A stretch of 24,000 bases of DNA from Aidingimonas lacisalsi. GTDB taxonomy: Bacteria > Pseudomonadota > Gammaproteobacteria > Pseudomonadales > Halomonadaceae. The stretch lies in assembly GCF_008079445.1 (NCBI RefSeq), contig NZ_VRYH01000001.1:481196-505195 (forward strand), given 5' to 3'. The notes beneath the pieces are model-generated. The model made no database searches and was not told the origin of the DNA. It saw only the letters and a program-made list of their open reading frames with translations. The translations under genes and the position numbers were made by a program. Positions 726-15,299 of this stretch are shown here, piece after piece. Numbering within the stretch: position 1 is the stretch's first letter; the number at the start of each line of letters is the position of its first letter.

Positions 726-729
726 ACGC

Positions 730-1398
730 ATGGAGCTCCACTGGAAGCAAGGTATCTACGCCATTACCGATAGTCACCTGTTGCCCGACGACCACACGCT
801 ATTTTCAGCCTGCGAAGCGGCACTGGAGGGCGGACTGGCGTTGCTGCAATACCGTGACAAGTCATCTGATCCGGATAAACGCTGGCGTCAGTCACAGGGT
901 CTGGCCGCTCTATGTCGTGGGCATGGTGTACCGTTGATCATCAATGATGACCTTGAGCTGGCATGGCGATTGCGTTGCGCAGGGTATCGACACGTCGGTT
1001 TGCACCTGGGGCAGGAGGATGGCGCGATAGGTGAGGCACGTGCAAGGCTTGGACCCGATGCCATTATTGGTTCCACCTGCCATGACAGTCTGGATCTGGC
1101 GAAACAAGCCTCCCGGGAAGGTGCCAGTTATCTCGCATTCGGTCGCTTCTTCGCTTCATCCACCAAACCGGAAGCGCCGTCTGCGAGACTCGAGTGTCTT
1201 GAGAAAGCGGCGGTCTTTGGTTTACCGCGAGTCGCGATTGGGGGGATCGGGGCAGAAAATATGATGATGGCCAGGAGAGCCGGGGCCGACCTGCTTGCCA
1301 TGGTCGGTAGTGTGTTCCGCCATGAAGATCCACGAACGCGTGTCGCATGGCTGAATCAACGGCTGGACAACCCGCGATTTGCACCTGACCATGAATAG
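730..1398 (+). CDS. thiE: thiamine-phosphate synthase ThiE
   Basis: MELHWKQGIYAITDS..LLQYRDK..IINDD..HLGQED..GGIG is a typical ThiE pattern. The ATG at 730 lies 4 nt after the thiD stop. The ORF-track start at 607 would overlap thiD by 119 nt and adds non-conserved residues. Confidence 0.9.
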   Translation: MELHWKQGIYAITDSHLLPDDHTLFSACEAALEGGLALLQYRDKSSDPDKRWRQSQGLAALCRGHGVPLIINDDLELAWRLRCAGYRHVGLHLGQEDGAIGEARARLGPDAIIGSTCHDSLDLAKQASREGASYLAFGRFFASSTKPEAPSARLECLEKAAVFGLPRVAIGGIGAENMMMARRAGADLLAMVGSVFRHEDPRTRVAWLNQRLDNPRFAPDHE

Positions 1399-1438
1399 AG
1401 CATGCGCATCGTGACCGATGGCGTTACCGTTTCATTAC

Positions 1439-1481
1439 CTATCCACAAGGTGGCTAGCTGTTATCCAAAGGGTTATCCACA
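1439..1481 (+). promoter_or_regulatory. cluster of three DnaA-box motifs in the thiE-hemL spacer
   Basis: CTATCCACA (1439-1447), TTATCCAAA (1461-1469) and TTATCCACA (1473-1481) are all in the same orientation. One is a perfect match to the 9-mer TTATCCACA and two are one-mismatch matches. Confidence 0.5.
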
Positions 1482-1517
1482 GCTTGTCATCAAGATTCTT
1501 GATGCATGAGGGCCTTC

Positions 1518-2807
1518 ATGACCACATCCGCTGAGCTGTTCGAACAGGCATGTCGTTACATTCCAGGGGGAGTCAATTCTCCGGTACGTGCCTTCAAGGG
1601 CATGGATCGGGCGCCCCGGTTCATCGAGCGTTCTCAAGGAGCCTATCTATTCGATGTGGAAAGCAACCATTATGTCGATTATGTCGGCTCCTGGGGACCG
1701 ATGATCACCGGCCATGCCGACCCGGAGGTACTCGCTGCCGTCCGTGACAGGCTTGACGACGGTCTCTCCTTCGGGACGCCGACGGCCATCGAAACCACCA
1801 TGGCTGAGTCGATCTGTGAATTGATCCCGACCATCGAGATGGTTCGCATGGTCAACTCCGGTACCGAGGCCACCATGTCCGCCGTGCGTTTGGCCCGTGG
1901 CTATACCGGTCGCGATAAAATCGTCAAGTTCGAGGGCAATTACCATGGTCATACCGACTCGCTGCTGGTCAAGGCCGGTTCCGGAGCACTGACCCACGGT
2001 GAACCCAGCTCTCCCGGTATTCCAGCGTCGTTGGCTGAGCATACCGTGACCCTGTCGTATAATGACATCGAAGCCGTGGAAGCCTGTTTCGAGGAGATTG
2101 GCGATCAGGTGGCCTGCATCATCGTCGAGCCGGTAGCCGGCAACATGAATTGCATTCCTCCTTCGCCGGATTTCTTGCAGGGGCTGCGACGTGTCTGCAA
2201 CGAACATGGCAGTTTGCTGGTTTTCGATGAGGTGATGACTGGATTCCGTGTCGCCTTGGGGGGAGCGCAAGCTCATTATGGCGTGATGCCGGATCTGACG
2301 TGTCTGGGCAAGATCGTCGGTGGCGGCATGCCGGTGGGGGCATTCGGCGGCAGTCGCGAAATCATGTCCTGGATATCTCCGTTGGGTCCGGTTTACCAGG
2401 CTGGAACACTGGCTGGTAACCCGCTGGCCATGGCTGCAGGCATAACGCTTTTGAACAAGATTCGTGAGCCCGGTTTTCATGATGCGCTGGCCCAGCGTGT
2501 CGATACCCTGTGTTCCGGACTCGAAGCTCGTGCCCAGGCGGCAGGAGTGGATATGATAACGCAGCATGTTGGCGGCATGTTCGGAGTCTTCTTTACTCAC
2601 CAGACGAGCGTCGACAATTTCGCGCAGGTAGCGGCTTGCGATGCTGAGATGTTTCGTCGCTTCTTTTCGCGAATGCTCGATCAGGGCGTTTATCTGGCAC
2701 CGTCCCCCTTCGAGGCCGGTTTCATGTCAAGTGCGCATACGCCGGAAGACATCCAGAAGACATTGGATGGGGCTGAGAAGGTATTCGATAGTCTGGGTCG
2801 AACTTGA
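1518..2807 (+). CDS. hemL: glutamate-1-semialdehyde 2,1-aminomutase HemL
   Basis: The N-terminus [21 protein letters not shown] matches HemL, and the class-III aminotransferase core is present ([24 protein letters not shown]). The ATG at 1518 gives the canonical N-terminus; 1506 is an in-frame alternative. Confidence 0.95.
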
Positions 2808-2818
2808 CAGAATAGCGG

Positions 2819-4402
2819 GTGATCAACCGGGTGGTCAGGAGGGAAACGGTGAGCGATGCGTTGATTCAGGCGCTGAGTCATCCAGCGTGTTACGAGCCCT
2901 CGGTGCAAGAAGTCGAATGTCTCGAGACGCCGATGGCGTGGGTATTGTTGACAGGGGATTATGCCTACAAGGTCAGCAAACCTCTGACCCTGGGTAACGT
3001 CATTGATCGCTCGACCCTGGAACAGCGTCGATCTCTTTGTGAACGAGAGGTACGACTCAGTCGACGCGTTGCACCCCATCATCGTTTAAGCGTAGTGCCT
3101 ATCTCCGGCACCCCTGAGTCGCCTCGCTTGGGCGATGACTCCGCCCCCATCGAGTATGCGGTAAAAATGTACCAGTTGAGTCCTCGCCGCTTATTCAGTG
3201 CATGGCAGGCCGGCGGGCAATTCTCTCGCGAACTGGTCGATGAGCTGATCGTTCAACTGGTTGATTTCCATGAATGTGCGGAAACGGCATTGCCTGGGTC
3301 CATGGAGACTCGTGTTGAGTCCGTTCGGGATAATATCGAGCTGGAGTTCGAGCGGATCCTGCCCCAGCTTCAAGATGCTTCTGAATTGCACCGCCTGGCC
3401 TTGTTGCGAACCTGGGCTGCGGAGGCGTTTGCTCGTTTACGAGCTGTGTTATCAATACGCTATGAGCAGGGAAGCGTACGTAAGATACCCCAGGATTTTC
3501 GCTGTCGCCATGTCGATCATGATGGCGTTGCCTGGTCCTTTGATCGGGTCGCTGCGTTGGATCGGGAGCCTTGGATCGATGTGGGTGGCGATCTGGCAGG
3601 TCTGCTGGTTGAACTGGAAGCTCGAGGCGAACGCCCGTTGGCACGACATGCTTTGAATCGTTACCTGGAACTCTCGGGAGATTATGATCTAGCCAGAGTA
3701 TTAGACTACTTCAAGGTCTATCGTGCCCTGGAGCGTGCCAGAGGTATCCTCCAGGAGGCTGGGACGCAGGGAATCGGGCCCTTGCAATACGAACGTTGTC
3801 GTGACTATCTGGCACTAGCGGAAAGTGACAGTGAATTCCGTTTCCCCTATCTGTTGATCGGCGCCGGGGTATCGGGAAGTGGGAAGAGCCGCTTCACTGG
3901 TGAGACAATTCGACGTCTAGGCGGTATTCGACTGCGTTCCGATGTCGAGCGAATGCGCTTGTTCGGCTGTGAGTCTGACGAAGCGAAAGAGACGATTGAT
4001 GCCAATCTCTATGGACCCAGAAATACGCAACGTACCTATCGACGTCTCGCTGAATTGACGGGCATTCTTCTGGAATCGGGATTACCCGTTTGTATCGATG
4101 CGACTTGTCTGAAACGCCAGCAACGTGATCTGCTTGCCTGGCAGGCAGAAGGGCGAGGCTTGCCGGTGATCATTGTCAGCTTCGAAGCGGATGAGGCCAC
4201 GCTTCGTTCCCGTATTCAAAAACGCTCGCGAGGTATTGATGATTCCTCGATGAGCGGGCTGGCGATTCTGGAGCATCAGCTTGCCGAACGTGAGCCTTTT
4301 GGTGACGACGAGCGACGTAGACTGATTCATCTTGATACGACAGCCGACAATGCTACCGATAATTTAGTGAGCTTGATTCAGACGCATATGCGACTGGACT
4401 GA
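2819..4402 (+). CDS. bifunctional aminoglycoside-phosphotransferase-like / P-loop ATP-binding (AAA-kinase) protein
   Basis: 527 aa. The N-terminal part resembles an APH/protein-kinase-like fold (WVLLTGDYAYKVSKP...TLEQRRSLCEREVRLSRRVAP). The C-terminal ~170 aa carry a Walker A motif, GAGVSGSGKSRF. GTG start at 2819. Confidence 0.75.
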   Translation: MINRVVRRETVSDALIQALSHPACYEPSVQEVECLETPMAWVLLTGDYAYKVSKPLTLGNVIDRSTLEQRRSLCEREVRLSRRVAPHHRLSVVPISGTPESPRLGDDSAPIEYAVKMYQLSPRRLFSAWQAGGQFSRELVDELIVQLVDFHECAETALPGSMETRVESVRDNIELEFERILPQLQDASELHRLALLRTWAAEAFARLRAVLSIRYEQGSVRKIPQDFRCRHVDHDGVAWSFDRVAALDREPWIDVGGDLAGLLVELEARGERPLARHALNRYLELSGDYDLARVLDYFKVYRALERARGILQEAGTQGIGPLQYERCRDYLALAESDSEFRFPYLLIGAGVSGSGKSRFTGETIRRLGGIRLRSDVERMRLFGCESDEAKETIDANLYGPRNTQRTYRRLAELTGILLESGLPVCIDATCLKRQQRDLLAWQAEGRGLPVIIVSFEADEATLRSRIQKRSRGIDDSSMSGLAILEHQLAEREPFGDDERRRLIHLDTTADNATDNLVSLIQTHMRLD

Positions 4403-4626: not shown

Positions 4627-4641
4627 TGGCATATATCATGC
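4627..4641 (+). promoter_or_regulatory. candidate sigma-54 (-24/-12) promoter of the divergent Fap-like module
   Basis: TGGCAT-ATATC-ATGC, with exact GG-N10-GC spacing (GG 4628-4629, GC 4640-4641). It has two mismatches to TGGCAC-N5-TTGC. It lies ~140 nt upstream of the ATG at 4782, in an AT-rich spacer. Confidence 0.55.
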
Positions 4642-4670
4642 CCCATCTTGTTACCATGAAAAGACACTGT

Positions 4671-4697
4671 ATATCAGTGGATGTTTGTCACTGATAT
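4671..4697 (+). other. 9-bp perfect inverted repeat in the predicted 5' leader
   Basis: ATATCAGTG (4671-4679) and CACTGATAT (4689-4697) are separated by the 9-nt loop GATGTTTGT. The repeat lies downstream of the sigma-54 promoter and upstream of the ATG at 4782. Confidence 0.4.
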
Positions 4698-4781
4698 CGG
4701 TGATGACTTCTCTGATGATGCCAGAAAGTACGATTTTCATGGGCGAAATGAATAAATCATGCATGATAAGGGAGATTCACC

Positions 4782-5924
4782 ATGAAGAAGTATGTACTAG
4801 CGGGAACAACGATGTTGGCCTTGGTCATGGCGATTTCCACTGCCAGTGCCAACCCCTTCAACAAGCAGATCGGCACGGATGATAGTGGCGATCAATCAAA
4901 TAATCTGACATCGACAGCGGCAGCAACAGGCGGAGACAGTGGTTTTTCGCTGGGTGGTAGCGGTGGTGATGGCTCCAGTGACGCTTCCGTCAAAGCCAAG
5001 AATTATCTGGATGAGGTCGACGACGACGATAACGCTGGAACACAGACCGCGGCGGGTACAGCCACCAGTGGAACAGGGACTGGCGGTGCGGGTGGTGCCG
5101 GCGGTGCTACTGGACGCGGTGGCGATGCCTGGGCCATGAGTGAATCCTACAACACCATCACCGAAGTCATTGCCTATCAGGACCTGGAATCCCAAGTCAC
5201 CGGCTCCAGGGTATATATCACGGCAGGTGATGGAGCCATGGGGGGGGCCGGCGATGATGGTGGCGATGCGTTTGCTGCCTCTGTCGGAGTCGGTGTTGGT
5301 GGTGAAGGCGGTAAAGGTGAAGGGGGTGATGGCGGTAAGTCCTACGCCAAGGCAGGCGATGGTGACGATGGCGGTGATGGTACTGGTCTCGGTCTCGGAC
5401 TAGGCGCTGGTCAGGGTGGTGACGCTGACGCCGAGAATGATGACACCTATGCCAACAACGCAACCTTGGCTGGTCTAGCGGCTGTCGTCGAGGATGATGA
5501 CAATAATGCGACTGGCGGGGCGGCCACTGGCGGTGATGCCACGGCTTCATCAGCAGCAGCAGGCGGTACCGGTGGTGCCGGTAGTGGTACTGGCAGCGGT
5601 TCCGGTACGGGGACTGCCGGTGATGGCGGTAATGGCGGTAACGCAACAGCAGGAACTGGAGGTAGCGCTAACGGTAATGGCGGCGGCGGCGGTGGTGGCA
5701 CCGGCACCAGTGGCGATGCCATGGCGGCTGCCGGCAATGGTGGCAACGGTGGTAACGGCGGCAATGGCGGCAATGCAACGTTGGCAACCGGAACTGCCAG
5801 TATGTCAGCAGGCTCCGGAACCTTCGGGGGTATCGCCAACATGAACTTGTCCACCGGTATCTATAACTCTCAGTTGGCTGCCAGCAACGTTGCGGCACAT
5901 AGCAACGTCAACATTGGCAATTGA
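4782..5924 (+). CDS. secreted Gly/Asp-rich low-complexity protein with one C-terminal Fap-type N/Q/G repeat (putative cargo)
   Basis: An RBS (GGGAGA) precedes the ATG. The Sec signal peptide is MKKYVLAGTTMLALVMAISTASA|NP. Long G/D/A/T tracts follow (GGAGGAGGATGRGGD, GGEGGKGEGGDGGK, NGGNGGNGGNGGN). The C-terminal 36 aa, SGTFGGIANMNLSTGIYNSQLAASNVAAHSNVNIGN, align in register with the FapB/FapC repeats. Confidence 0.8.
   Translation: MKKYVLAGTTMLALVMAISTASANPFNKQIGTDDSGDQSNNLTSTAAATGGDSGFSLGGSGGDGSSDASVKAKNYLDEVDDDDNAGTQTAAGTATSGTGTGGAGGAGGATGRGGDAWAMSESYNTITEVIAYQDLESQVTGSRVYITAGDGAMGGAGDDGGDAFAASVGVGVGGEGGKGEGGDGGKSYAKAGDGDDGGDGTGLGLGLGAGQGGDADAENDDTYANNATLAGLAAVVEDDDNNATGGAATGGDATASSAAAGGTGGAGSGTGSGSGTGTAGDGGNGGNATAGTGGSANGNGGGGGGGTGTSGDAMAAAGNGGNGGNGGNGGNATLATGTASMSAGSGTFGGIANMNLSTGIYNSQLAASNVAAHSNVNIGN
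5733..5774 (+). repeat. imperfect 9-nt codon repeat encoding (GNG)n
   Basis: GGCAATGGT GGCAACGGT GGTAACGGC GGCAATGGC GGCAAT is in frame with the 4782 CDS and encodes GNGGNGGNGGNGGN. Synonymous differences interrupt perfect DNA repetition. Confidence 0.8.
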
Positions 5925-5958
5925 TGAGTGTTTGATACGGCTATAAAGCGGTAATCAT

Positions 5959-5989
5959 GGGTTGGCGGCATTGTCCGCCAACCCTTATT
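5959..5989 (+). terminator. hairpin attenuator/terminator after the Gly-rich cargo gene
   Basis: GGGTTGGCGG (5959-5968), loop CATTGT, CCGCCAACCC (5975-5984) form a perfect 10-bp GC-rich stem, followed by TTATT. It starts 35 nt after the stop codon. Confidence 0.55.
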
Positions 5990-6028
5990 CGATCGATCTT
6001 TAGTGCGTCGGCACAGGAGCAGTTCATC

Positions 6029-6412
6029 ATGAAAAGATTCGACCGTTTGTCGCTGCAGCTGATTGGGATCGTCACGCTGGTGGGTCTTGCCGTTTCGCCT
6101 ATTCTTGCAGAAGAACTCCCATCTTCAACTGCCCGAGGATTCGATACTGTCGAAAAAATTGATGGCGACATTCTTGAAACCCTGAGAGGGAAAGAAGGGT
6201 TCGTTAATCTGACAAATGTTCAAAGCATTCAAAATCTTGATGCTAGCGTGAGTCATAGCAGCTTTTATGCCGATACTATACGCAGTGGTGCAATCACCAT
6301 CGAGGCTCAGGCACTAGAAAATTTTGGTGGGATCGGGTTATTCAACCTGGTTACCGGCAATAATAATGCTGTCAATAGTGGTGTTGGAGTAAGTATCTAC
6401 ATGGCTGAGTGA
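6029..6412 (+). CDS. small secreted protein ending in one Fap-type repeat (FapB/nucleator-like position)
   Basis: AGGAG lies 10 nt upstream of the ATG at 6029. The signal peptide is MKRFDRLSLQLIGIVTLVGLAVSPILA|EE. The C-terminus is AQALENFGGIGLFNLVTGNNNAVNSGVGVSI. The ORF-track start at 5957 falls inside the upstream hairpin. Confidence 0.65.
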   Translation: MKRFDRLSLQLIGIVTLVGLAVSPILAEELPSSTARGFDTVEKIDGDILETLRGKEGFVNLTNVQSIQNLDASVSHSSFYADTIRSGAITIEAQALENFGGIGLFNLVTGNNNAVNSGVGVSIYMAE

Positions 6413-6424
6413 TGAGTAATTGAT

Positions 6425-7138
6425 ATGAAGAAACTGATTACCGGAATTATGGCGGCGACGGTGCTGACTGCATCATTTCAAATGATGAACGTTTCTTCAG
6501 CCTATGCTGGTTCTGTCAACATTGCCGGTTCCTTCGGCTCGTTTCAGGTTCCCAGCAAAAGTCTGGTTGAATTGCGTTGGGATCGTGTTGTGCCTCAGCA
6601 GTATGACTATAGTTGCGGATCCGCTGCCGTCGCGACGCTACTTACCTATCATTACGATCGCGAAACTTCCGAAGCGGAAGTCTTCGATCTCATGTTCGCT
6701 AGTGGCGATAAGGAGAAAATACAACAGCATGGATTTTCAATGCTTGATATGAAGCGCTACCTGGATGCTCAGAATCTTGATTCGGACGGTTTCCGCATCG
6801 AGCTGGACGATTTTATACGCATCGGGGTCCCTGCCATCACGTTAATCAATACCGGCGGTTACAAACATTTCGTGGTGATCAAAGGCATGGATGAAGATCG
6901 TGTTCTGGTTGGCGATCCGGCAGTAGGTACTGTCGTTGTGCCTAAGGAGCACTTCAGAAAGCTGTGGGACGGTACGGTGCTTGGAGCCAGGCGCGAAATG
7001 GAACTTGCTCAGCTTCACTTCAATCACGAAGATGATTGGCGTATCCGCCCCGATTCGCCGTTAAAGCAGGGTATGAGGCGTTCCGGTGTGGGTAGCGCCT
7101 TACTCGGTCTACCCGGTGATAACGAGATGGGCAAATAA
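6425..7138 (+). CDS. periplasmic C39-family cysteine peptidase (FapD-like paralog)
   Basis: The signal peptide ends ..SSAYA|GS. The catalytic Cys context is YDYSCGSAAVATLLTY, the His context is GGYKHFVVIKG, and the Asp context is VGDPAVG. The protein is colinear with the 13656-14372 product. Confidence 0.85.
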   Translation: MKKLITGIMAATVLTASFQMMNVSSAYAGSVNIAGSFGSFQVPSKSLVELRWDRVVPQQYDYSCGSAAVATLLTYHYDRETSEAEVFDLMFASGDKEKIQQHGFSMLDMKRYLDAQNLDSDGFRIELDDFIRIGVPAITLINTGGYKHFVVIKGMDEDRVLVGDPAVGTVVVPKEHFRKLWDGTVLGARREMELAQLHFNHEDDWRIRPDSPLKQGMRRSGVGSALLGLPGDNEMGK

Positions 7139-7161
7139 TAGCCTCATTGGGGACGATGACC

Positions 7162-7845
7162 ATGAACGTTTCGACTGGTGAATGGCAAGCCGGAGTTAGA
7201 AGGGACTCGCGAATAGTAAAGCGAAGAACGATCTGGCCGCTGGCATGGCTGTGTTTTTTCATATCTTCGACAACACCGGCGGGCTTTGTCGCTGAGATGG
7301 CAATTGACCCATTCGTGCCTGAAGTTGACGCACCCATGGCTGAGCCTCTGGCATTTTCTCAGCAGCCGGTTATCGATGCGTCCGAATTGGAGGGTATGCG
7401 TGGTGGTTTCAATATCGCGGGATTGGATGTCGATTTCGGAGCCAGATTAAGAACACAAATCGATAATATTCGCTATGAAACCGTGCTTAGCATCACTCAA
7501 GCAGGCACTAGTGTGGTATCGGAAACCTTGAATGATATGGGATTTCAAGCGAATCAGCAATTGATCCGGGTTGGTCAAGGTAGCGGGAGCTCATTGGAAA
7601 ATGTATTGCCAGCCAACGTGGCATTACCGGGATTGAATGAATTCAGTGGCGTCACTCTCAATGATCCCAAGGGTTTTTCGGCAGCACTGCATAACGTCAC
7701 TCGTGATGCTATCATGAGCTCAGTCGTGAGCAACGCATCTGACCGGGATATCCGGCAGTACATGAACCTTGATGTGAAGCTCAATAATGTCAATTCGCTG
7801 CGCGATGCCCAGCAGCGTTCAGTCATCATGAACTCATTGTTCTAG
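7162..7845 (+). CDS. FapE-like secreted protein (paralog of 14426-15214)
   Basis: GGGGA lies 8 nt before the ATG at 7162; in-frame alternatives are 7147 (TTG) and 7156. There is a long n-region signal peptide (..IWPLAWLCFFISSTTPAGFVA|E). It shares the block DASELEGMRGGF..FG with the DDELAGMRGRF..FG block of 14426-15214, and sits after a C39 peptidase gene as that gene does. Confidence 0.55.
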   Translation: MNVSTGEWQAGVRRDSRIVKRRTIWPLAWLCFFISSTTPAGFVAEMAIDPFVPEVDAPMAEPLAFSQQPVIDASELEGMRGGFNIAGLDVDFGARLRTQIDNIRYETVLSITQAGTSVVSETLNDMGFQANQQLIRVGQGSGSSLENVLPANVALPGLNEFSGVTLNDPKGFSAALHNVTRDAIMSSVVSNASDRDIRQYMNLDVKLNNVNSLRDAQQRSVIMNSLF

Positions 7846-7872
7846 ATGGCATGCTCTGATCTCACCTCCTTC

Positions 7873-7901
7873 AGGGCAAGCGAGATATCGCTTGCCCTTT
7901 G
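7873..7901 (+). terminator. rho-independent terminator closing the + strand genes of the divergent module
   Basis: AGGGCAAGCGA (7873-7883), loop GATA, TCGCTTGCCCT (7888-7898) form a perfect 11-bp stem, followed by TTG. The opposite strand has no U-tract. Confidence 0.65.
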
Positions 7902-7961
7902 TCTATGAGTTGCTGGCAATACCGGTCTTGGACTGTCTATTCCAGTTCGGCGTGCCTCCCA

Positions 7962-9035
7962 TTAAAAGACGTTCATGCCAAACGGAATCCGTAGTGTCAA
8001 CATGGTGTCGGGTGCATCATCAGTGACTCCAAGCTCCAGTCCCAGATTGACCGATGTATCCTGTGAAAGCTGATAGGACCAGCCCAGAAGCAGTGAACCG
8101 ACATTCAGGGTGCTGGATTGAGTACTAACACTATTGCCATCATCGTCAGTGAAACGGGTCTTGGTTTTATTGATGAAATCGTTCTTGTACCCAAGTGTGA
8201 ACGACGAACGTTCGTTGATGGAATAAGCCATGCCAAAACTCACACGAACGGCGTCTCCCGGGTCAACTTCACCGACGAAGAGATCACCTACCGGTTCATC
8301 GATATCGTCCTTCATATTGTAAAGATAGCCAAAATTGGCAAAGTAGACGGCCGGGTCCGAGGGAAACAGAAGCGTCAGGCTAGGTTCGATCGAGTGAAAA
8401 CCAGAGCCCGTCGCCAATTCGCGTTCGATGCCGTCCGCATCGCGGCGGATATCGAAAGGTCCCTCGCCGGTCGTCGATTTATATCTGAGATTGCCAATGA
8501 AATATGGCCAGCCATCCTGGCCTCGATTCATTTGATAGTGGGCGGCGATCTCGATATCTCCTAGCCCGTTTCCCGTCAGGCTTCTATCTGTACTGAATCC
8601 TTGTGCATCGGGAACCGTGGCATAGAGTGTGTCGTCGCGGTAGACATAAGGTACTTTCAGCTCCAGTTCCAGCCGGTCGGTGACTCCCAAGCGACCAGTT
8701 ACCGAGGCCGTCATGGTATCTCGGTCGGCGTCTTCGGCTTCGAATACGCCGATCAAAAAGGTACTCAATATTTCGATACCGCGAAATGTGAGCCTATTGA
8801 CGCTGGCATGGGAGTATTGTATTTCCGGTTCGATGACAAGACGCCCTTTGGGAGTAAGAACACCACCGATATCGGGAATGGCCTGAATTTCGGGTTGTTC
8901 TTGCTGAATTTCGGGTGCTTGTCCTACGGGTTGCTGCTCTGCAGAATTCCGGTTATTGGCATCCTGAGCCAGCACTTGACTGGCCAGAAGAAGAAGGCTC
9001 AGCCCGGTCATGCTTGTGAGGATTTTTGAGTTCAT
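7962..9035 (-). CDS. outer-membrane beta-barrel protein, FapF-like (MetA-pathway/phenol-degradation transporter-like family) paralog
   Basis: GGGGAGA RBS before the ATG at 9035. The signal peptide is MNSKILTSMTGLSLLLLASQVLA|QD. Blocks shared with the 15501-16613 product: L.IEP.I.Y, G.T[DE]RLE.EL..P..YR, GLGDI, DPA..FAN.GY.YN, NER.S, G[VL]TDDA.D. The C-terminal Phe (..GMNVF) is typical of an OMP beta-signal. Confidence 0.75.
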   Translation of the reverse strand: MNSKILTSMTGLSLLLLASQVLAQDANNRNSAEQQPVGQAPEIQQEQPEIQAIPDIGGVLTPKGRLVIEPEIQYSHASVNRLTFRGIEILSTFLIGVFEAEDADRDTMTASVTGRLGVTDRLELELKVPYVYRDDTLYATVPDAQGFSTDRSLTGNGLGDIEIAAHYQMNRGQDGWPYFIGNLRYKSTTGEGPFDIRRDADGIERELATGSGFHSIEPSLTLLFPSDPAVYFANFGYLYNMKDDIDEPVGDLFVGEVDPGDAVRVSFGMAYSINERSSFTLGYKNDFINKTKTRFTDDDGNSVSTQSSTLNVGSLLLGWSYQLSQDTSVNLGLELGVTDDAPDTMLTLRIPFGMNVF

Positions 9036-9122
9036 GTCGTTGTCTCCCCTGAGACCCCTTGTTGAATGTTGAATGATGCATGACATTATTACGTTGTCGG
9101 CCTGGCGATGGTCCTCCTATGC

Positions 9123-10550
9123 TCAATGCTTTCGGGAGCTCGAGTCCTTCAGCGGGGATAAAGGAAATACCGTCACACCGTTGAGAGTTTTTCGGTGCCA
9201 CTCGATACGATGCTTCTCCAATAATCGGTAAAGAGTGATTCTGGAAATCCCTAGTTCGCGAGCCGTAGGTACGATCTTGTAGTTATGCCGTTGCAATGCT
9301 GCCTCTACAACGGCAATTTCAGCATTATCGCGAGCGGCTTCCAGAGTGGCGGCAATGGGTTTTCCCTCAATCAATCGGCCTTCAAGGCCTAGATCCTCTG
9401 GCTCGATCAGGTGGTGTTCACACATCACCATTGCGCGCCGGATACGATTGATGAGTTCACGGACATTACCCGGCCAATCGTGCTGGGCAATCGCCTCGAG
9501 GGCGTTCTCGCTGAACCCGTGAACGCCAGCAGCTTTCTCTGGGCTAAACTCGCGAAAGAATCCTTGAGCCATGGTTTCCAGGTCTTCCCGCCGTTCGCGC
9601 AGTGGTGGAATATCCAACTGGATGACGTTGAGGCGATGATAGAGATCTTCTCGAAACCGGTGAGCCTTGATCGCGGTGAGCAGGTCAACATGAGTGGCGG
9701 AAATGATGCGTGTATCGACCATGACTTCCTGGACGCTACCAAGGCGCCGTATCCGATGGTCTTCCAGAAAGCGAAGCAGGTTGACTTGCAAGTCGCGTGG
9801 GAGATCACCGATCTCATCCAGAAACAGCGTGCCACCATCGGCACTTTCAAGTCGTCCGATACGGCGACAGTGCGCATCAGTGAATGCGCCTTTCTCATGT
9901 CCAAAAAGCTCAGCTTGAATGAGCTGGGCCGGTAAAGCGCCACAATTGATGGTGATGAAAGGTTTGTCGGCTCTGGCTGACATGGCGTGGATGGTACGAG
10001 CGACCAGTTCTTTGCCCGTACCGGATTCACCGATGATCATCACTGGTGCATGAATGATTGCCACTTTATGGATACTTTGCAGAACTCGTCTCATGCTGGG
10101 AGCAGAGCCGTAAAAGGGGGGGGCGGCATGCTGAAGGTAGTGAAGTACTCGCGTAGATGATGCTGATCTGGCAGTACGTTTCATCGATGCTGCATGGTTA
10201 AGAAGAACACAAAGGGCCTTTCCATTGCCAGGAAGTATATGGTAAGCATAAAAAAGTGTTTTTATTATCAATCTATTATTTTCATTTCTTAGATAATCAT
10301 TGTCTATTAAGGCAATCCATTCTATGCAGCTAGCATCTATCAATTCCTCAATGTCTCTGTATCCTGATTCACACAAAGATCCCATATCGATGATACCAAT
10401 ATCGAAATGATTGGCTATCAATCGGTCCGATGGCATAGTGATACGAGGATAGTGACTGACCTCAAAGAGCTTCAGTGCCGTATCGACAAGGATGAGACGG
10501 TTGGCCTCAATACGATTCCCAACATAAAGTAATCTCTTCAATGCATGCAT
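9123..10550 (-). CDS. sigma-54-dependent enhancer-binding protein (VpsR-like architecture), variant GAFTDA loop
   Basis: Walker [15 protein letters not shown] (9873-9890), Walker [10 protein letters not shown], and a C-terminal Fis-type HTH (ELGISRITLYRLLEKH). The N-terminal ~120 aa are receiver-like and lack the N-terminal acidic pair. Clear paralog of 16673-18037 (shared KRLL[YF]VG, EW[IV]AL[IV]D, LFYAYH.LP). Confidence 0.85.
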   Translation of the reverse strand: MHALKRLLYVGNRIEANRLILVDTALKLFEVSHYPRITMPSDRLIANHFDIGIIDMGSLCESGYRDIEELIDASCIEWIALIDNDYLRNENNRLIIKTLFYAYHILPGNGKALCVLLNHAASMKRTARSASSTRVLHYLQHAAPPFYGSAPSMRRVLQSIHKVAIIHAPVMIIGESGTGKELVARTIHAMSARADKPFITINCGALPAQLIQAELFGHEKGAFTDAHCRRIGRLESADGGTLFLDEIGDLPRDLQVNLLRFLEDHRIRRLGSVQEVMVDTRIISATHVDLLTAIKAHRFREDLYHRLNVIQLDIPPLRERREDLETMAQGFFREFSPEKAAGVHGFSENALEAIAQHDWPGNVRELINRIRRAMVMCEHHLIEPEDLGLEGRLIEGKPIAATLEAARDNAEIAVVEAALQRHNYKIVPTARELGISRITLYRLLEKHRIEWHRKTLNGVTVFPLSPLKDSSSRKH

Positions 10551-11291
10551 GAGCCCCCCTTATGGCATTGAAAAGCTTAACCTTCACAATGAGTGTGATC
10601 AGGTCTAGGCATTGTCTGAAAAGTGCCTTCGCTTACCCATACGGCGTTAAAAATCGGCTCAAGATGCCAATTTACAACGTGTAAACTCCGCGCTTTCGCC
10701 GATTTTTTGCCTTGTCTGTCCTTCGCTCGCCGACTTTTCAGACAGCGCCTAGTTCTGTGTTTTATGTCGTTTTCCAATTTATGGAAAGCGGTTGGTAATA
10801 TCGGATTTCATTGATGCGATAGTAATACTGGTTACCCAGTCATCTTTTGTAAAGTTTTGTTTTATGGGATTTTAGTATGGTTTATGGACCAACAATTTCA
10901 TTGAATTAAAATGGTAGGGTGTTTTCATTGAAAAAATGACCAAAATTGATGATTTATTATTATTCTGAGCCACTAATTTTCATCAGGAATATGTATATCT
11001 TAATAAAGGAATATACGAAAATACAGAAGGGAAATTGGATATACACAAGAGAGAATTTTGATAACCTGTTGAATATCAAATAGTTACATTACTTTTCGTG
11101 CGATCCCGATCGTTTTTGTATCAAAAATGTTTCACTCTCTTTCCATAAGGCTGCAGACCCTGTCATAGAAGGTTTCTTTTCCTATTGTTTAATTTACATT
11201 CGGCAACAATATGAGCGGATGTCTCATCAGCTATACACTCTCCTTCTCGTTGATTCTATTTAAAATGCATTAAAATCAATAAGATAAAAGT
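10551..11291. promoter_or_regulatory. ~740-bp AT-rich divergent control region between the EBP gene and the fap operon
   Basis: No credible ORF. The region is very AT-rich from about 10800. It contains TTTCATTGA three times (10806, 10896, 10923), the dyad TCATT-N5-AATGA (10925-10939) and TTTATGG repeats 20 bp apart (10861, 10881). Confidence 0.5.
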
Positions 11292-11307
11292 TGGCATGGC
11301 AATTGCT
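11292..11307 (+). promoter_or_regulatory. sigma-54 (-24/-12) promoter of the fap operon
   Basis: TGGCAT-GGCAA-TTGCT has one mismatch to TGGCAC-N5-TTGCW, with exact GG-N10-GC spacing (GG 11293-11294, GC 11305-11306). It lies ~35 nt upstream of the RBS-supported ATG at 11341. Confidence 0.7.
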
Positions 11308-11340
11308 CAGTGTTATGTGACGACACTGAGGATAGAGATC

Positions 11341-11844
11341 ATGAACGGCTTTACACACTCCACATCGGTTTTACCGCTCAGGCCAATCGCAACGCGCTGC
11401 CAGTATATCGCGACTGCATTGATCCTGGCGTGGGGACCGGCTGTCAGCTGGGCAGGGGAGTTGCAGGGAGATAACGACACCATAGCCGTTGCCTACACCA
11501 CGGTCTCGCATCAGTCATCGTCATATAGCAATAACAACCACCATGGTTTGGCCGATCATGTCGCTTTCGAAAGTGGCAATGACTTCGGGGGTAACGGCGG
11601 AGAAAGCTTGCCCGGCACATTCAGGTCACTGGAGATGAACACAACCATTGATAGTGACACCTTGAGCCAGGTGCGCGGCCGTTACACCCCGTCTTCCGAG
11701 CTCGAAAAAGGCACGGCTGACGGCGTCATTCTTTGGGATGAAGGCCATGTCGGCAAAGGTGGTGGTTCGAGCAAGGGATCCAATCACTCCATGGGTCAGG
11801 GAAATATCCAGAACAACTCCATTACGACCCAGAGTAAAAGGTGA
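11341..11844 (+). CDS. small secreted, largely low-complexity protein in the FapA position
   Basis: GAGGA lies 8 nt before the ATG at 11341; the ORF-track ATG at 11296 sits inside the sigma-54 promoter. The signal peptide is ..YIATALILAWGPAVSWA|GE. The mature part is S/N/G-rich. The assignment rests on gene order only. Its stop overlaps the next start (GTGA). Confidence 0.45.
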   Translation: MNGFTHSTSVLPLRPIATRCQYIATALILAWGPAVSWAGELQGDNDTIAVAYTTVSHQSSSYSNNNHHGLADHVAFESGNDFGGNGGESLPGTFRSLEMNTTIDSDTLSQVRGRYTPSSELEKGTADGVILWDEGHVGKGGGSSKGSNHSMGQGNIQNNSITTQSKR

Positions 11845-12527
11845 GCGTCATGGCTGGAAACACAATCTTTGGAAACGAAATATCAAACAAAACTGGCCGT
11901 TTGCGGAGAGTGTTACTGGCAATGTCACCGCTGGTTTTCATGACGTTCGTAATGAATAACGCATCAGGAGATGACGGGGTCTTCAGGCATCTACCGCAGG
12001 CGAATAGCAGTGTCATCAGTGGTGAAGCGTTGAGTGGAGTACGGGGTGTAGTTACCACCAATAGTGCAGCGGGAACCAACAATCTTCAGAGTAATTCGGG
12101 AGCGATTTCCATCGGTGATACCGCTTCCGTGAGTAACCATATCATTCAGCAATCCACACTGGACAAAGGCTCCGTTCCTGGCCGAGACAACGTCTCGATC
12201 GAGGGTCGAGCATTCAGCCATGCCAAAGGCTGGATTTCGACCAATCAGGCGGCGGGGCAAGCGAATGTGCAGGGCAATGCAGTCAGCATGGCTCTGGGCA
12301 TCAGGGGCAGTGCACTGAGCGAGAGCAGTATGGGTCAGGTGCTGTCCGATCAGCAGGGACTGACGGCCGATCTGGTTAGTTCCGATTCCTCGAAGCGTAA
12401 GGTCACGATCGACAAGACAGCCTTCTCGGGGGCGGCAGGAATTATCCAGACGAACCAGTCAGCCGGAAACGGCAATACCACCAGTAACAGCTTCAGTCTC
12501 CGTGTGGGGCCTGGGGGCGGTGAGTAG
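11841..12527 (+). CDS. fapB: FapB-like amyloid subunit/nucleator with three Fap-type repeats
   Basis: Signal peptide ..RRVLLAMSPLVFMTFVMNNASG|DD. It has three ~34-aa imperfect repeats (see the repeat feature) and ends GPGGGE, like the FapC-like protein (GTGGGSE). Start is GTG 11841 (coupled) or ATG 11850 (AGGTGA RBS). Confidence 0.7.
   Translation: MSVMAGNTIFGNEISNKTGRLRRVLLAMSPLVFMTFVMNNASGDDGVFRHLPQANSSVISGEALSGVRGVVTTNSAAGTNNLQSNSGAISIGDTASVSNHIIQQSTLDKGSVPGRDNVSIEGRAFSHAKGWISTNQAAGQANVQGNAVSMALGIRGSALSESSMGQVLSDQQGLTADLVSSDSSKRKVTIDKTAFSGAAGIIQTNQSAGNGNTTSNSFSLRVGPGGGE
12015..12509 (+). repeat. three imperfect Fap-type protein repeats in the FapB-like CDS
   Basis: R1 12015-12116 ISGEALSGVRGVVTTNSAAGTNNLQSNSGAISIG. 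R2 12198-12299 IEGRAFSHAKGWISTNQAAGQANVQGNAVSMALG. R3 12408-12509 IDKTAFSGAAGIIQTNQSAGNGNTTSNSFSLRVG. Confidence 0.8.
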
Positions 12528-12576
12528 TCTGCCGGAATAAACAACGTTGAACCAAGGTTCATTCAGGAGAAAGATC

Positions 12577-13578
12577 ATGAAAACATTGACGAAAACTCCG
12601 CTGGCACTGGCTATCGCTACCTTGATGATGGCGCCCTATGCGATGGCGGATGGGTATAACGGTGGTTTCGATACCGATAGTGAAATCGACTCTGAGTTCA
12701 GTAATGAAGTCGAAGTCGAAATCGAGCATGAAGCGGAAACCGATAAGAAGATCAAGGTATGGGGCGGCGCCCTGATACTGGATCCCAACTACGCGGGTGC
12801 CACGGTCGATAGCAAGCAATTGTCGGAAGACAATTTCGTGCTCAACGACCTGGTGGAAAACGATGCGCGAGTAGGCGGTGATGCCGGTCGAAATGCCAGC
12901 GGCAATATCGGCATCAACAGTGCGGCCGGCGACAACAACCAACAGGCCAATGATGCGGCCTTGGCGGCATCCGACGCGAATACGGTATTCGCCCAGTCGG
13001 CCGCATTCTCGGTACAGTCCTCTGACGACAACACGGTGGTCAACAAGGGTACCGATAACGATGCCGGCGCAGGTGGCAATGCGCTGCGCGGCGCCACAGG
13101 CAATATCGGTCTCAACAGTGCCGCCGGGGTCGGTAACGCCCAGCAGAACAGCTTGTCGGCGTCCGTCAACACCAGCAATGGATCAGCCGATGCCACATCG
13201 GCCGGCGTGCAATCGACCAGCGATAACACCAGCTTCAATGGACCCGGGGAAATCGAGACCACGGAAACCTCTCAATATAATGGCGTAGCAGCCATTGCGG
13301 GAGCGTCTGCCGAAGCTGGTGCAGGTGCAAGCGTTGGTTATGGACTGAAAGTCGGTGCCGGTGCAGAAGCCAGCGCTGGGGCGCTTGCGGCGGCTGTCTC
13401 CGGTAGTGAGACCGTCACCACCACGGTCTCTCGGATGCAGACCAACGATGCCAAGCTGAACGGTAACGCGCTCCGCGATGCTTCGGGCAATATCGGGGTC
13501 AACGTGGCTGCCGGCAACAACAACATGCAGCGTAACTCGCTCTCCATTGCCGCCGGAACGGGTGGTGGTTCTGAGTGA
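12577..13578 (+). CDS. fapC: FapC-like major functional-amyloid subunit
   Basis: AGGAGA RBS 6 nt before the ATG at 12577. The signal peptide is MKTLTKTPLALAIATLMMAPYAMA|DG. It has three N/Q/G/A-rich repeats separated by linkers of unequal length, and is the third gene of a fapABCDEF-ordered cluster. Confidence 0.75.
   Translation: MKTLTKTPLALAIATLMMAPYAMADGYNGGFDTDSEIDSEFSNEVEVEIEHEAETDKKIKVWGGALILDPNYAGATVDSKQLSEDNFVLNDLVENDARVGGDAGRNASGNIGINSAAGDNNQQANDAALAASDANTVFAQSAAFSVQSSDDNTVVNKGTDNDAGAGGNALRGATGNIGLNSAAGVGNAQQNSLSASVNTSNGSADATSAGVQSTSDNTSFNGPGEIETTETSQYNGVAAIAGASAEAGAGASVGYGLKVGAGAEASAGALAAAVSGSETVTTTVSRMQTNDAKLNGNALRDASGNIGVNVAAGNNNMQRNSLSIAAGTGGGSE
12874..13554 (+). repeat. three imperfect Fap-type protein repeats in the FapC-like CDS
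   Basis: R1 12874-12972 GGDAGRNASGNIGINSAAGDNNQQANDAALAAS. R2 13072-13167 GGNALRGATGNIGLNSAAGVGNAQQNSLSASV. R3 13456-13554 LNGNALRDASGNIGVNVAAGNNNMQRNSLSIAA. Confidence 0.85.
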
Positions 13579-13599
13579 CCGCGGCTAGTCGGTGATGTG

Positions 13600-13627
13600 A
13601 ACCGGCCCCGGATGGGGCCGGTTTTCC
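13600..13627 (+). terminator. intra-operon hairpin attenuator/terminator after fapC
   Basis: AACCGGCCCC (13600-13609), loop GGAT, GGGGCCGGTT (13614-13623) form a perfect 10-bp stem running into TTTT. It lies between the fapC stop (13578) and the fapD start (13656). Confidence 0.65.
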
Positions 13628-13655
13628 ACTCCAACGAGCCTGTGGGAGAGCACTG

Positions 13656-14372
13656 ATGTTTCCTTCGATAATGACTCGCATGTTGTCTGTTCTGGTTGGC
13701 GCTGGCTGCCTGCTGGCAGCGGGAATATCCGATGTCCAGGCGGCCAACGTGCGTCTGGGCAATGTGGTATCGGGTACCGTGATCAACAAGGATGTGCAGT
13801 CGATGCGCGAGCGGAAGTTCGACACCCTGGTGGAACAGGAAACGGATTTCTCCTGTGGCGCCGCCTCGCTGGCGACTCTGCTTCGTTACGCCTATGGCAA
13901 GCCGGAAGTCACTGAAAATGACGTGCTTGAGGGAATGCTTGAAATCGCCGATCCCGAGGTGGTGATGGAGCGCGGCTTTTCCCTGCTCGACCTCAAGAAT
14001 TATGTCGATAGCCTGGGATATCGTGGCCGCGGTTACGAAGTCGACACCGAGACGCTGGACGAGGTGGCGATTCCCGTTATCGTGCTGCTCGATATCGATG
14101 GCTACAAACATTTCGTGGTGATGAAGAAAGCCAGTGATGACCGGGTCTATGTCGGCGATCCGGCGTTGGGCAATCGGGTCATGGAGCGCGATGCCTTCCT
14201 CGAAGCCTGGAACAACATCATCTTTGCCGTGGTAGGCGAAGGGTTCGATACGCAGACACCTCTACTCGATCCGGATCAACCGCTGACGGCGCGACGGCTG
14301 ACCGATGTGTTTGCCCCGGTTCCCGAACAGGATCTTCTCGATTTCGGATTTCGCCATGCCGACTTCTTCTGA
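13656..14372 (+). CDS. fapD: periplasmic C39-family cysteine peptidase FapD
   Basis: Signal peptide ..LLAAGISDVQA|AN. The Cys context is TDFSCGAASLATLLRY, the His context is DGYKHFVVMKK, and the Asp context is VGDPALG. There are no ABC-transporter domains. Fourth gene of the cluster. Confidence 0.85.
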   Translation: MFPSIMTRMLSVLVGAGCLLAAGISDVQAANVRLGNVVSGTVINKDVQSMRERKFDTLVEQETDFSCGAASLATLLRYAYGKPEVTENDVLEGMLEIADPEVVMERGFSLLDLKNYVDSLGYRGRGYEVDTETLDEVAIPVIVLLDIDGYKHFVVMKKASDDRVYVGDPALGNRVMERDAFLEAWNNIIFAVVGEGFDTQTPLLDPDQPLTARRLTDVFAPVPEQDLLDFGFRHADFF

Positions 14373-14425
14373 GCGAGGTGCCTGCGGATAACGACATCAA
14401 CAAGGGCGCATTCAAGGGGGTAAAT

Positions 14426-15214
14426 ATGATCAGGCACTGGGTGGATAAGCGTTGGTACGGTGCACTGGGCGTTGTCGTTGTATTAGGGGGCGTTGGACAA
14501 CCGACAGACGGACGGGCCGCGACGACCGATGTATCGGCGTTGGCTGATTCCCGTCAACTCAGCGATGACGAATTGGCCGGTATGCGCGGCCGTTTCATCG
14601 ATGGCAAAAGTGTCATGTTCTTCGGCGTCAGTATGGAGAGTGAATTCCGCACCGCGGGAGGTGATAGTCTGAAAGCGGGCGCCAATCTCCATGCCGATCT
14701 GATCAAAGGCAAAGCCAGTTTCAAACCACATATTACAGCCACGTCTATCGATAGCGATAAGGTGACAGCGAAAGGAAATAATAATGCGAATTTGAGCTAT
14801 AACGACCTCGGCAGTGGCAATGCGCGTGGCGTCGTGCAAACCATACAGGCGGCCGGTGATGGCAACGCTGCTGCCAACGAATTCGAACTCGATATCCAGA
14901 CATTTGCGAATGCGGCGCGTGGCGGACGAGTTTCCGGCAATGGTGAAACGTCTCTGAATACCGGTACAGCCAATCTGAGAGTTCGACAGAATGGACGCGG
15001 TATGGAAGTCGGTATCGACGTGCCAGGCCAGGGCCGTATCAAGCAGCAGCTCCGATCGGGGCAGGGGTTGCATCAGTCGGTGCAACTCAACAGCGATTTG
15101 CAGCAGGTGCGAAACGTGACACGGTTACAAGTCGGGGTGAAGCAGGCACTGGGTAACGCGTCAGGCTCCCAGCTCAAGCGTGCACTGGATTCGGCACGCG
15201 GCCTACGACGTTGA
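14426..15214 (+). CDS. fapE: FapE-like secreted minor amyloid-associated protein
   Basis: AAGGGGG lies 5 nt before the ATG at 14426. The signal peptide is ..WYGALGVVVVLGGVGQPTDGRA|A. It contains one Fap-type repeat (14807-14896, LGSGNARGVVQTIQAAGDGNAAANEFELDI). Fifth gene of the cluster. Confidence 0.6.
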   Translation: MIRHWVDKRWYGALGVVVVLGGVGQPTDGRAATTDVSALADSRQLSDDELAGMRGRFIDGKSVMFFGVSMESEFRTAGGDSLKAGANLHADLIKGKASFKPHITATSIDSDKVTAKGNNNANLSYNDLGSGNARGVVQTIQAAGDGNAAANEFELDIQTFANAARGGRVSGNGETSLNTGTANLRVRQNGRGMEVGIDVPGQGRIKQQLRSGQGLHQSVQLNSDLQQVRNVTRLQVGVKQALGNASGSQLKRALDSARGLRR

Positions 15215-15258
15215 CCGGACCGACATCGGTTTCGCAATCAGGTTGCTATTTTTTTATG

Positions 15259-15299
15259 GTGGCTGTCTCCGTAAGTTACGTGAGACGGCCACTTTTTCT
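15259..15299 (+). terminator. rho-independent terminator between fapE and fapF
   Basis: GTGGCTGTCTC (15259-15269) pairs with GAGACGGCCAC (15282-15292), with one G.U pair. The inner CGT/ACG pairs can extend the stem. TTTTTCTG follows. Confidence 0.65.

Follow-up and report, generated by a model that had tools for sequence, protein, structure and literature searches.

A 24,000-nt stretch of the Aidingimonas lacisalsi genome (NCBI RefSeq assembly GCF_008079445.1, contig NZ_VRYH01000001.1, positions 481,196–505,195 of the forward strand; termed the window, with positions counted from its first nucleotide) carries a canonical fapABCDEF cluster and, 750 bp from it, a group of six genes that displays similarities to the Fap system (termed the module). 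Fap is one of only two well-studied amyloid export pathways in Gram-negative bacteria, and the substrate of its peptidase FapD is still to be found (PMC5557850). The module is conserved in dozens of salt-loving and other bacteria. It seems fairly probable that it constitutes a self-contained, sigma-54-controlled Fap-type secretion/fibre system, in which a C39 peptidase would remove double-glycine leaders in the periplasm.

Gene layout and conservation of the module

The features of the module and of the adjoining fap region are listed in Table 1. All six open reading frames named in a first-pass annotation, which was made from the sequence alone, were found intact, and its gene coordinates, sigma-54 promoter and terminator were recovered at the same positions by open reading frame analysis and scans.

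Table 1. Positions of the module and of the neighbouring fap features in the A. lacisalsi window
Feature	Position	Strand	Length or remark
Sigma-54 type −24/−12 promoter element TGGCATATATCATGC	4627–4641	+	equivalent element in 26 of 29 loci
Gly/Ala/Thr/Asp-rich secreted protein, putative major exported subunit	4782–5924	+	380 aa
Small secreted protein, putative one-repeat FapB/C-like subunit	6029–6412	+	127 aa
Periplasmic C39 cysteine peptidase, FapD/FilB relative, with signal peptide	6425–7138	+	Pfam PF03412
Accessory "E-like" protein	7162–7845	+	227 aa
Double-glycine leader-like motif inside the E-like gene	7372–7407	+	I71-D-A-S-E75-L76-E-G-M79-R80-G81-G82
Intrinsic-terminator-like stem-loop between convergent operons	7873–7898		11-bp stem
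FapF-type outer-membrane beta-barrel	7962–9035	−	357 aa
Sigma-54 enhancer-binding protein (EBP), VpsR-type N-domain	9123–10550	−	Pfam Sigma54_activat
Canonical fapABCDEF cluster	about 11296–16613		NCBIfam FapB, FapC, FapD, FapE, FapF matches
Second EBP, beside fapF	16673–18037	−	VpsR-type N-domain

Sec signal peptides can be read from the sequences of all five non-regulatory proteins of the module, and no FapA-like gene is present in it. The genes appear to form two convergent transcription units, one with the two cargo genes, the C39 peptidase and the E-like gene, and the other with the activator and the pore. The stem-loop between them is the strongest terminator-like stem in the region (7 GC pairs, followed by TTTGTCT). 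The terminator scan called it on the + strand only; judging by its position, it would serve both units.

One genome per species was scanned for the module, with a narrower alignment of the E-like protein as query, which biases the survey to Halomonadaceae. This yielded 30 loci, in Halomonas, Vreelandella, Litchfieldella, Modicisalibacter, Billgrantia, Franzmannia, Aidingimonas, Rhodocyclaceae, Lysobacteraceae and other gammaproteobacterial metagenome-assembled genomes. Every locus that is long enough shows the complete layout, in which the Gly-rich, small, C39 and E-like genes face the pore and EBP genes on the opposite strand; the co-occurrence of the Gly-rich family with C39 and FapF-like genes, which the first-pass annotation had proposed to survey, is found in all of these. 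Around two close relatives of the E-like protein, in Halomonas rhizosphaerae (L001) and on a metagenome contig (L002), the six genes likewise keep this order and orientation, with no fap cluster alongside. The inverted pore gene and the split arrangement, earlier viewed as an oddity, are a conserved layout of the family and not a quirk of the A. lacisalsi genome.

In 27 of the 30 loci no fap gene adjoins the module, and two metagenome contigs and the Brevundimonas loci are likewise without a fap neighbour. Canonical fap genes adjoin it only in two Aidingimonas species, and a remnant is found in Litchfieldella (L016); Halomonas ventosae has the module (L007) as well as a FapB homolog (P0182), apparently on different contigs. 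Orthologs from different genera are 56%–82% identical in the C39 peptidase and 55%–88% in the pore, as against 33%–34% identity to the co-resident FapD and FapF. Because identity among the orthologs far exceeds that to the co-resident Fap paralogs, the module appears to be an ancient, vertically and independently conserved sister system of Fap rather than a local duplicate, and the earlier proposal of a duplicated and repurposed Fap machine is not upheld. The first-pass annotation also described the D-, E- and F-like proteins and the EBP as having diverged paralogs in or beside the fap cluster. This is correct for the peptidase (34% identity to the resident FapD), the pore (33% to the resident FapF) and the EBP (49% to the one at 16673–18037, with a VpsR-type N-domain in both), but not for the E-like protein, which in BLASTP matches the resident FapE over 30 residues only (E-value = 0.085).

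A recent, decaying and functionless duplicate of the adjacent fapABCDEF cluster would account for the 750-bp distance and for the presence of D, F and EBP paralogs in both systems. This explanation is hardly tenable and is refuted by the comparative data: all open reading frames are intact with invariant catalytic residues, the six-gene unit is present in at least 30 species of several families, mostly with no fap neighbour, and the orthologs group much more closely with one another than with co-resident Fap paralogs. The module is intact and probably functional.

More distant members with the same architecture are found in Brevundimonas diminuta (L034, L035) and on metagenome contigs (L033, L036, L037, L038). 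In these the first gene is variable and encodes an Asn/Ser/Asp-rich, a Thr/Asn-rich or a short Gly/Ala-rich protein. In B. diminuta, an alphaproteobacterium, the first cargo gene encodes an Asn/Ser/Asp-rich protein with LELGVSDSFNDNSDNSTNTN-type tandem repeats, and the regulator beside its pore (L034/L035, 10121–10876) is of the Crp family and not a sigma-54 EBP. On L037, Tad- and type II secretion system (T2SS)-like pilus genes (a T2SSE ATPase, two T2SSF genes and a prepilin peptidase A24) are present at 1–3956, immediately upstream of the module; this may be a coincidence or a surface-structure island. In Litchfieldella qijiaojingensis (L016, 12002–12609), short open reading frames that match only FapA (56%, a fragment) and the FapF C-terminus (71%) sit in the interval that separates the module from an ortholog of the second EBP, as if fapB–E had been deleted from a canonical fap cluster.

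The sigma-54 site at 4627–4641 has two mismatches to TGGCAC-N5-TTGC and alone is not significant: the window has 35 matches of this kind, with 27 expected. In 26 of 29 loci, however, a TGGCA(C/T)-N7-(T/A)GC element lies 95–161 nt upstream of the first gene's ortholog (27 loci if one element at −33 is included, the start of that gene being uncertain). Because an equivalent element is conserved in this way, the A. lacisalsi site is taken as a genuine promoter element. No −24/−12 element was detected upstream of the pore gene in any surveyed locus, and the EBP and pore open reading frames abut or overlap in several; for these two reasons the pore gene is probably co-transcribed with its regulator gene. 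The EBP has, in addition to a strong Sigma54_activat match (Pfam, E-value = 8e-67), VpsR and HTH_8 domains.

Peptidase, pore and accessory protein

The C39 enzyme matches Pfam Peptidase_C39 (PF03412, E-value = 1.6e-22) and the sequence of PDB entry 6mpz (E-value = 4.9e-6). In NCBIfam it matches FapD with 134 bits and FilB with 129 bits, both far below the equivalog cutoffs. In an alignment of 31 sequences (30 orthologs and FapD) Q58, C64, H148 and D164 are invariant, which bears out the earlier description of a signal-peptide-bearing C39 protein with an intact Cys/His/Asp triad. Going by its sequence, the peptidase is a Sec-exported periplasmic C39 enzyme with an intact active site.

The barrel matches NCBIfam FapF (NF058560) with an E-value of 2.8e-46 and 158 bits, FilC with 88 bits, and, over residues 62–352, the sequence of the crystallised Pseudomonas FapF (PDB 5o67, E-value = 7e-33). 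By these alignments it is a true FapF homolog, as first annotated. The FapF and FapD equivalog cutoffs (700 and 330 bits) are missed by the module proteins (158 and 134 bits) and by the resident canonical FapF and FapD as well (364 and 284 bits).

After the signal peptide, the periplasmic part of the barrel protein is only about 40 residues long. Within it a PVGQxP motif is conserved, the linker is Pro/Glu/Gln-rich, and GGVLTP(K/R)G, ahead of the first strand, is invariant. A long N-terminal coiled coil has been described for Pseudomonas FapF (PMC6173795); the N-terminus of the module barrel looks too short for one.

The barrel also has a Pfam PF13557 match (E-value = 4e-6) and lies in a different transcription unit from the cargo. 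It could thus be a channel of the Phenol_MetA_deg type that takes up hydrophobic compounds under control of the EBP and has no connection with the convergent operon. This is very unlikely, as the FapF scores given above are far better, and the tail-to-tail pairing of the pore gene with the C39/E-like operon is invariable in distant taxa, even in Brevundimonas with its Crp-family regulator.

Over all its 227 residues the product of the accessory gene matches an NCBI "hypothetical protein" of A. lacisalsi with 100% identity. Look-ups of the E-like and C39 proteins by exact sequence gave no entry. A word-indexed search yielded five related proteins, and a full hidden Markov model (HMM) search 358 cluster representatives at E ≤ 1e-3, 125 of them at E ≤ 1e-10. 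The first-pass annotation named this protein FapE-like. Only 3 of 82 family members touch NCBIfam FapE, and these weakly (best E-value = 1e-4). An hhalign comparison with the resident FapE aligns only the signal peptide and an ELxxMRG motif (probability 52%). By these comparisons the E-like protein is a family separate from FapE, similar to it only at the N-terminal ELxxMRG motif, and the FapE-like assignment is withdrawn. Six distant family members with a LSDDELSGLRGGF-type motif were considered as possible FapE proteins and rejected, as they are not FapE by NCBIfam.

The E-like sequence shows a signal peptide, a disordered spacer, a double-glycine-type leader, a beta-rich mature domain and a C-terminal helix. 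An AlphaFold2 (AF2) model from the 82-sequence alignment has a predicted local distance difference test score (pLDDT) of 83, and above 90 for residues 83–227. In the model, residues 1–70 are disordered, 73–79 form a short helix and 83–227 form a confident beta-rich domain ending in a long helix. The leader motif is therefore helical and immediately ahead of the confident domain. A Foldseek search with the model gave no solved structural match (best E-value = 0.02, TM ≤ 0.17).

Double-glycine leaders have hydrophobic residues at −12 and −4, E at −8, L at −7 and G at −2 and −1 (the Havarstein/Dirix-type consensus). I71, E75, L76, M79, G81 and G82 of the E-like protein match this consensus at every position. 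The motif is followed by F83, and the predicted cut is between PVIDASELEGMRGG and FNIAGL; the peptide PVIDASELEGMRGGFNIAGLDV is a candidate C39 substrate, with the predicted cut after G82. Of 154 family representatives, 119 carry the pattern hydrophobic(−12) x3 [ED](−8) [LM](−7) x2 [LM](−4) R G G hydrophobic(+1), its median position being 64. Positions −12, −8 and −3 were left unconstrained in the search, and among the 119 carriers they display I/L/V at −12 in 105, E/D at −8 in 88 and R at −3 in 113. R80 is invariant in the 82-sequence alignment, and G81 and G82 are present in at least 90%.

The small protein has the same spacing (I44...L49..L52-R-G-K55 in the window; DLARLSGG in L038), as do the resident FapE (LSDDELAGMRGRF) and FapA (IDSDTLSQVRGRY). 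The conserved block of the Gly-rich protein is likewise preceded by G-R-G-G.

Exported proteins and proposed pathway

The Gly-rich protein consists of 27% G, 16% A, 10% T and 8% D, and has 33 GG dipeptides. It begins with a Sec-type signal peptide that, as read from the sequence, ends between ASA and NP. This is followed by an acidic/Gly-rich pro-region and an invariant GG-(D)A(W)A...SxN block at aa 111–145 (G-R-G-G-D-A-W-A-M-S-E-S-Y-N-T...V-I..Q..S.V.G), then by about 190 aa of GGxGG[DN]AxA-type low complexity and a C-terminal Fap-like repeat at aa ~333–380. Conservation was read from 28 orthologs. The low-complexity region is not conserved in sequence, while the termini are; the C-terminal ~45 residues are near-invariant (L.TG.A..S...G.FGGI.NMN.STG.YNSQ....VAAHSN..IGN.). 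A homolog search with this protein was swamped by low-complexity words and gave one irrelevant match.

The small protein, which is well conserved, displays a signal peptide, the leader-like element ending at K55, a conserved segment at aa 58–79 (termed motif 1) and a Fap-type repeat at aa 87–127. Its conserved elements are, in order, EL..LRGR(E)G, a block similar to aa 123–145 of the Gly-rich protein, and G.ITI...AL..FsGIGlFN..TGnnNaV..aVGISI. Motif 1 is common to both proteins (hhalign profile-profile E-value = 7.8e-4), and a small-protein HMM matches the Gly-rich protein at motif 1 and at the C-terminus. Because of these matches, the Gly-rich and small proteins are, at the sequence level, a large/small paralog pair, as are FapC and FapB.

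Several comparisons relate the C-terminal block to Fap repeats. An alignment of the small proteins, compared by hhalign with 19 Halomonadaceae FapB homologs, places 34 columns onto one FapB repeat (E-value = 0.018), and in single-sequence comparisons the block aligns to repeat 3 of FapB and FapC. An HMM of 57 FapB repeats, run against 2,772 open reading frames from the loci, ranks FapB, FapC, FapE and FapA first and the small proteins next (best E-value = 0.011). In the reverse direction, the small-protein HMM was run against about 2,820 sequences. At E ≤ 1 it finds only 30 small proteins, 32 FapB homologs and 10 Gly-rich orthologs, with zero background open reading frames, and each of the 32 FapB homologs is matched at all three repeats. 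Scores of at least 7 bits are reached by 30 of 37 real FapB homologs and by 17 of 1,850 composition-matched shuffles. Since shuffled sequences almost never score alike, the similarity is not purely compositional. The C-terminal block of the cargo is best regarded as a remote, single-copy Fap-type repeat, a weak but specific similarity that does not amount to FapB/FapC membership. The cargo, called non-canonical at first, is so in its Gly-rich low complexity and in having no FapB/FapC match, but both proteins appear to end in one Fap-type repeat.

The FapB-repeat HMM also matches canonical FapE (E-value = 1.3e-5, one repeat, aa 148–171; L003 14965–15801) and, weakly, FapA (E-value = 0.003; L003 11892–12422). 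These two L003 genes are orthologs of the window FapE (14378–15214) and FapA (11296–11844). The FapE match fits a published remark on an N/Q-rich repeat-like sequence in the C-terminal part of FapE.

The profile searches proposed in the first-pass annotation thus gave C39 and FapF matches, and no Pfam or NCBIfam match for the Gly-rich, small and E-like proteins. A Pfam scan of the window's own FapB and FapC gave no match either. The Pfam-A copy searched was without PF27129, a domain carried by all FapB homologs (P0176–P0212); because PF27129 lay outside this copy, the Pfam negatives for the cargo are to be read with reserve.

In the proposed Fap-type secretion/fibre system, the activator would turn on the first unit (4782–7845), and its four products would pass the inner membrane via Sec. 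The periplasmic C39 enzyme would cut the accessory protein after R80-G81-G82, and possibly also the homologous RG[GR] sites ahead of the motif-1 block in both subunits. This cleavage would license the unfolded subunits for passage through the FapF-type barrel. Once outside, their C-terminal Fap-like repeats would form a cross-beta spine by stacking; the small protein would be a FapB-like nucleator, and the long Gly-rich segment would be displayed as matrix or fibre surface. The proposal retains the earlier view of an export module that is related to Fap and comprises peptidase, pore and sigma-54 activator.

A number of points weigh against it. We infer secretion, cleavage and polymerisation of the module proteins from sequence. 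The similarity to Fap repeats is weak in each single sequence (best individual E-values 0.002–0.02), and each cargo protein has only one repeat-like block. Neither cargo protein matches NCBIfam FapB or FapC at E ≤ 1, FapC was not retrieved by a PDB sequence search with the small-protein profile, and a single-sequence structure model of the Gly-rich protein (pLDDT 38) is uninformative. The E-like protein of the window does not match NCBIfam FapE (NF058559) at E ≤ 1, and synteny was surveyed only at loci reached through the E-like protein. Cleavage of the two subunits by the C39 enzyme is speculative, because the −1 residue is R or K and not G in the Halomonadaceae small proteins, and the hydrophobic −4 and −7 positions are missing from the Gly-rich protein. 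Finally, the sigma-54 contact motif of the window's module EBP is GAFTDA and not GAFTGA; GAFTGA is present in the EBP at 16673–18037 and in 29 of 34 related or associated EBPs.

A doubtful but not negligible alternative is that the same C39 and pore machinery exports a non-amyloid product, i.e. a Gly-rich matrix protein or adhesin with, for example, polyglycine-II-like or disordered segments, the Fap-like C-terminus being mainly a pore-targeting signal. The single repeat per protein, as against three in FapB/FapC, would agree with this, and the cargo, otherwise highly variable, is most conserved in its C-terminal ~45 residues, as would be expected of a targeting signal. The central GGxGG[DN]A repeats are also, presumably, reminiscent of mycobacterial PGRS sequences. 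Yet the small-protein motif aligns to each of the three FapB amyloid repeats, the small/large paralog pair parallels FapB and FapC, and the low-confidence model of the Gly-rich protein lends no support to an alternative fold.

The 33 GG dipeptides allow another reading, since C39 enzymes classically mature double-glycine bacteriocins: the peptidase might cut a GG-rich precursor at many Gly-Gly sites, and Gly-rich, microcin-like peptides would leave via the barrel. This is unlikely. The substrates bear Sec signal peptides, no locus has an ABC exporter or immunity gene, the leader context is found at one GG site only, in the E-like protein, and the low-complexity sequence of the cargo is unconserved while its termini are conserved. 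Both this reading and that of an uptake channel are disfavoured because they are contradicted by the comparative data.

The Fap system of Pseudomonas (FapF structure 5O65/5O67; PMC5557850, PMC6173800) shares with the module a FapF-homologous barrel, a C39 peptidase that is Sec-exported and has its active site intact, and two paralogous secreted subunits, large and small, with a Fap-type GxxGxNxxxGxxN repeat. In both, an accessory gene directly follows the peptidase gene and its product has ELxxMRG near residue 70, about where FapE is processed. The differences are as follows. FapB and FapC have three repeats per subunit and the module proteins one; the major subunit of the module is mostly Gly-rich low complexity; in its accessory protein the beta domain is globular and of another kind, and the double-glycine leader is fully canonical. 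Fap is a single co-directional fapABCDEF operon with FapA, whereas the module is without FapA and its pore gene lies in a separate convergent unit, behind a dedicated regulator, in all loci. Relative to canonical FapA–F, the module has the FapF-homologous pore and the C39 enzyme but not the imperfect N/Q-rich repeats, three in each of FapB and FapC, nor a FapE homolog or the single operon.

The catalytic Cys of FapD is needed for the secretion of FapC (Rouse et al. 2017, PMC5557850). According to the same paper, FapE alone among the Fap proteins undergoes N-terminal processing, by about 70 residues, the Fap proteins are without a canonical C39 recognition sequence, and the FapD target "remains unclear". 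No later paper on the FapD target was found in the literature searched. The leader motif of the E-like protein could show what a Fap-type periplasmic protease cuts. As a canonical leader at the position where FapE is processed, it would permit a direct test of a protease-substrate pair, and in a simpler sister system, with one repeat per subunit and a compact, well-modelled accessory domain.

The leader pattern, the predicted helix, the peptidase fold and the catalytic residues match those of C39-processed double-glycine systems (e.g. ComA, LahT; PDB 3k8u, 6mpz). In contrast to the ABC-exporter C39 systems, a Sec signal peptide and a spacer come before the module leader, the peptidase is free and periplasmic, and export is proposed to be via an outer-membrane barrel.

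A C39 and FapF-like barrel pair is also found in the putative pilus "Fil" of Acinetobacter (pilus_FilB NF050078, pilus_FilC NF050079). The module peptidase scores nearly equally on FilB and FapD, while the barrel is nearer to FapF than to FilC; both Fil scores are well below the cutoffs (475 bits for FilB, 630 bits for FilC). The Fil models do not match the other four module proteins (the two cargo proteins, the E-like protein and the EBP), and a mechanistic description of Fil was not found in the literature searched.

Co-localised fapD/fapF homologs outside Fap operons have been noted in five additional phyla (Rouse et al. 2018, PMC6173800), and the module is one instance of that general observation. 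In the sections of that article that deal with these pairs, D–F co-localisation alone is given, with no cargo, E-like partner, leader motif or gene architecture. The claim that the system is undescribed therefore needs to be narrowed: a fapD/fapF pairing was already on record there and the FilB/FilC pair is named in NCBIfam, but no description of the module itself was found in the literature searched, and it is apparently undescribed.

A wider proposal can be put forward only tentatively. The module may be the first case in which the substrate and recognition motif of a Fap-type periplasmic C39 enzyme can be read from sequence. It would represent a widespread two-step pathway, from Sec through C39 to a 12-strand barrel, in which a second (double-glycine) leader is removed as an export licence. 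The product would be a hitherto unseen fibre with a single-repeat spine and a Gly-rich, possibly polyglycine-II-like, surface. If true, the same logic would account for the essential role of FapD in Pseudomonas.

The module widens the cargo associated with FapF-type pores to Gly/Asp-rich, Asn/Ser-rich and Thr/Asn-rich proteins with shared conserved termini, and ties the pathway to sigma-54/VpsR-type biofilm regulators in halophiles.

Regulators and neighbouring sequences

GAFTDA is found in the module EBPs of three loci (window 9123–10550; L003 9920–11308; L016 9827–11278). These are the loci with a second, GAFTGA-bearing EBP beside fap genes or their remnants. The other module EBPs mostly have GAFTGA (one has GAFTSA and two were not scored). 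The GAFTDA motif could reflect a function that was relaxed or divided once the two systems had come to lie side by side.

A VpsT-like regulator with REC/GerE (LuxR-type) domains, at 18112–18807 (−), adjoins the VpsR-domain EBP at 16673–18037 (−) near fapF. This pair recalls the VpsR/VpsT biofilm regulators of Vibrio.

A near-consensus sigma-54 element, TGGCATGGCAATTGC, is present at 11292–11306 (one mismatch), directly before the canonical fap cluster, which also looks to be sigma-54-dependent. The element overlaps the first ATG of the open reading frame 11296–11844, and for this reason the true fapA start is probably downstream, e.g. the ATG at 11341 (MNGFTH...).

Just downstream of the sigma-54 element of the module are two palindromes that are alike, CACTGTATATCAGTG (4665–4679) and TCACTGATATCGGTGA (4688–4703). 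Both fall in the ~140-nt leader of the Gly-rich gene and might serve as an operator or form RNA hairpins.

The two systems are separated by a 740-bp spacer (10551–11290) that is unusually AT-rich, with a GC content of about 41% as against about 55% elsewhere. It displays short direct repeats, TTTCATTGAA and TCGCCGAyTTTT, each present twice, and a 28-nt imperfect inverted repeat at 10649–10707.

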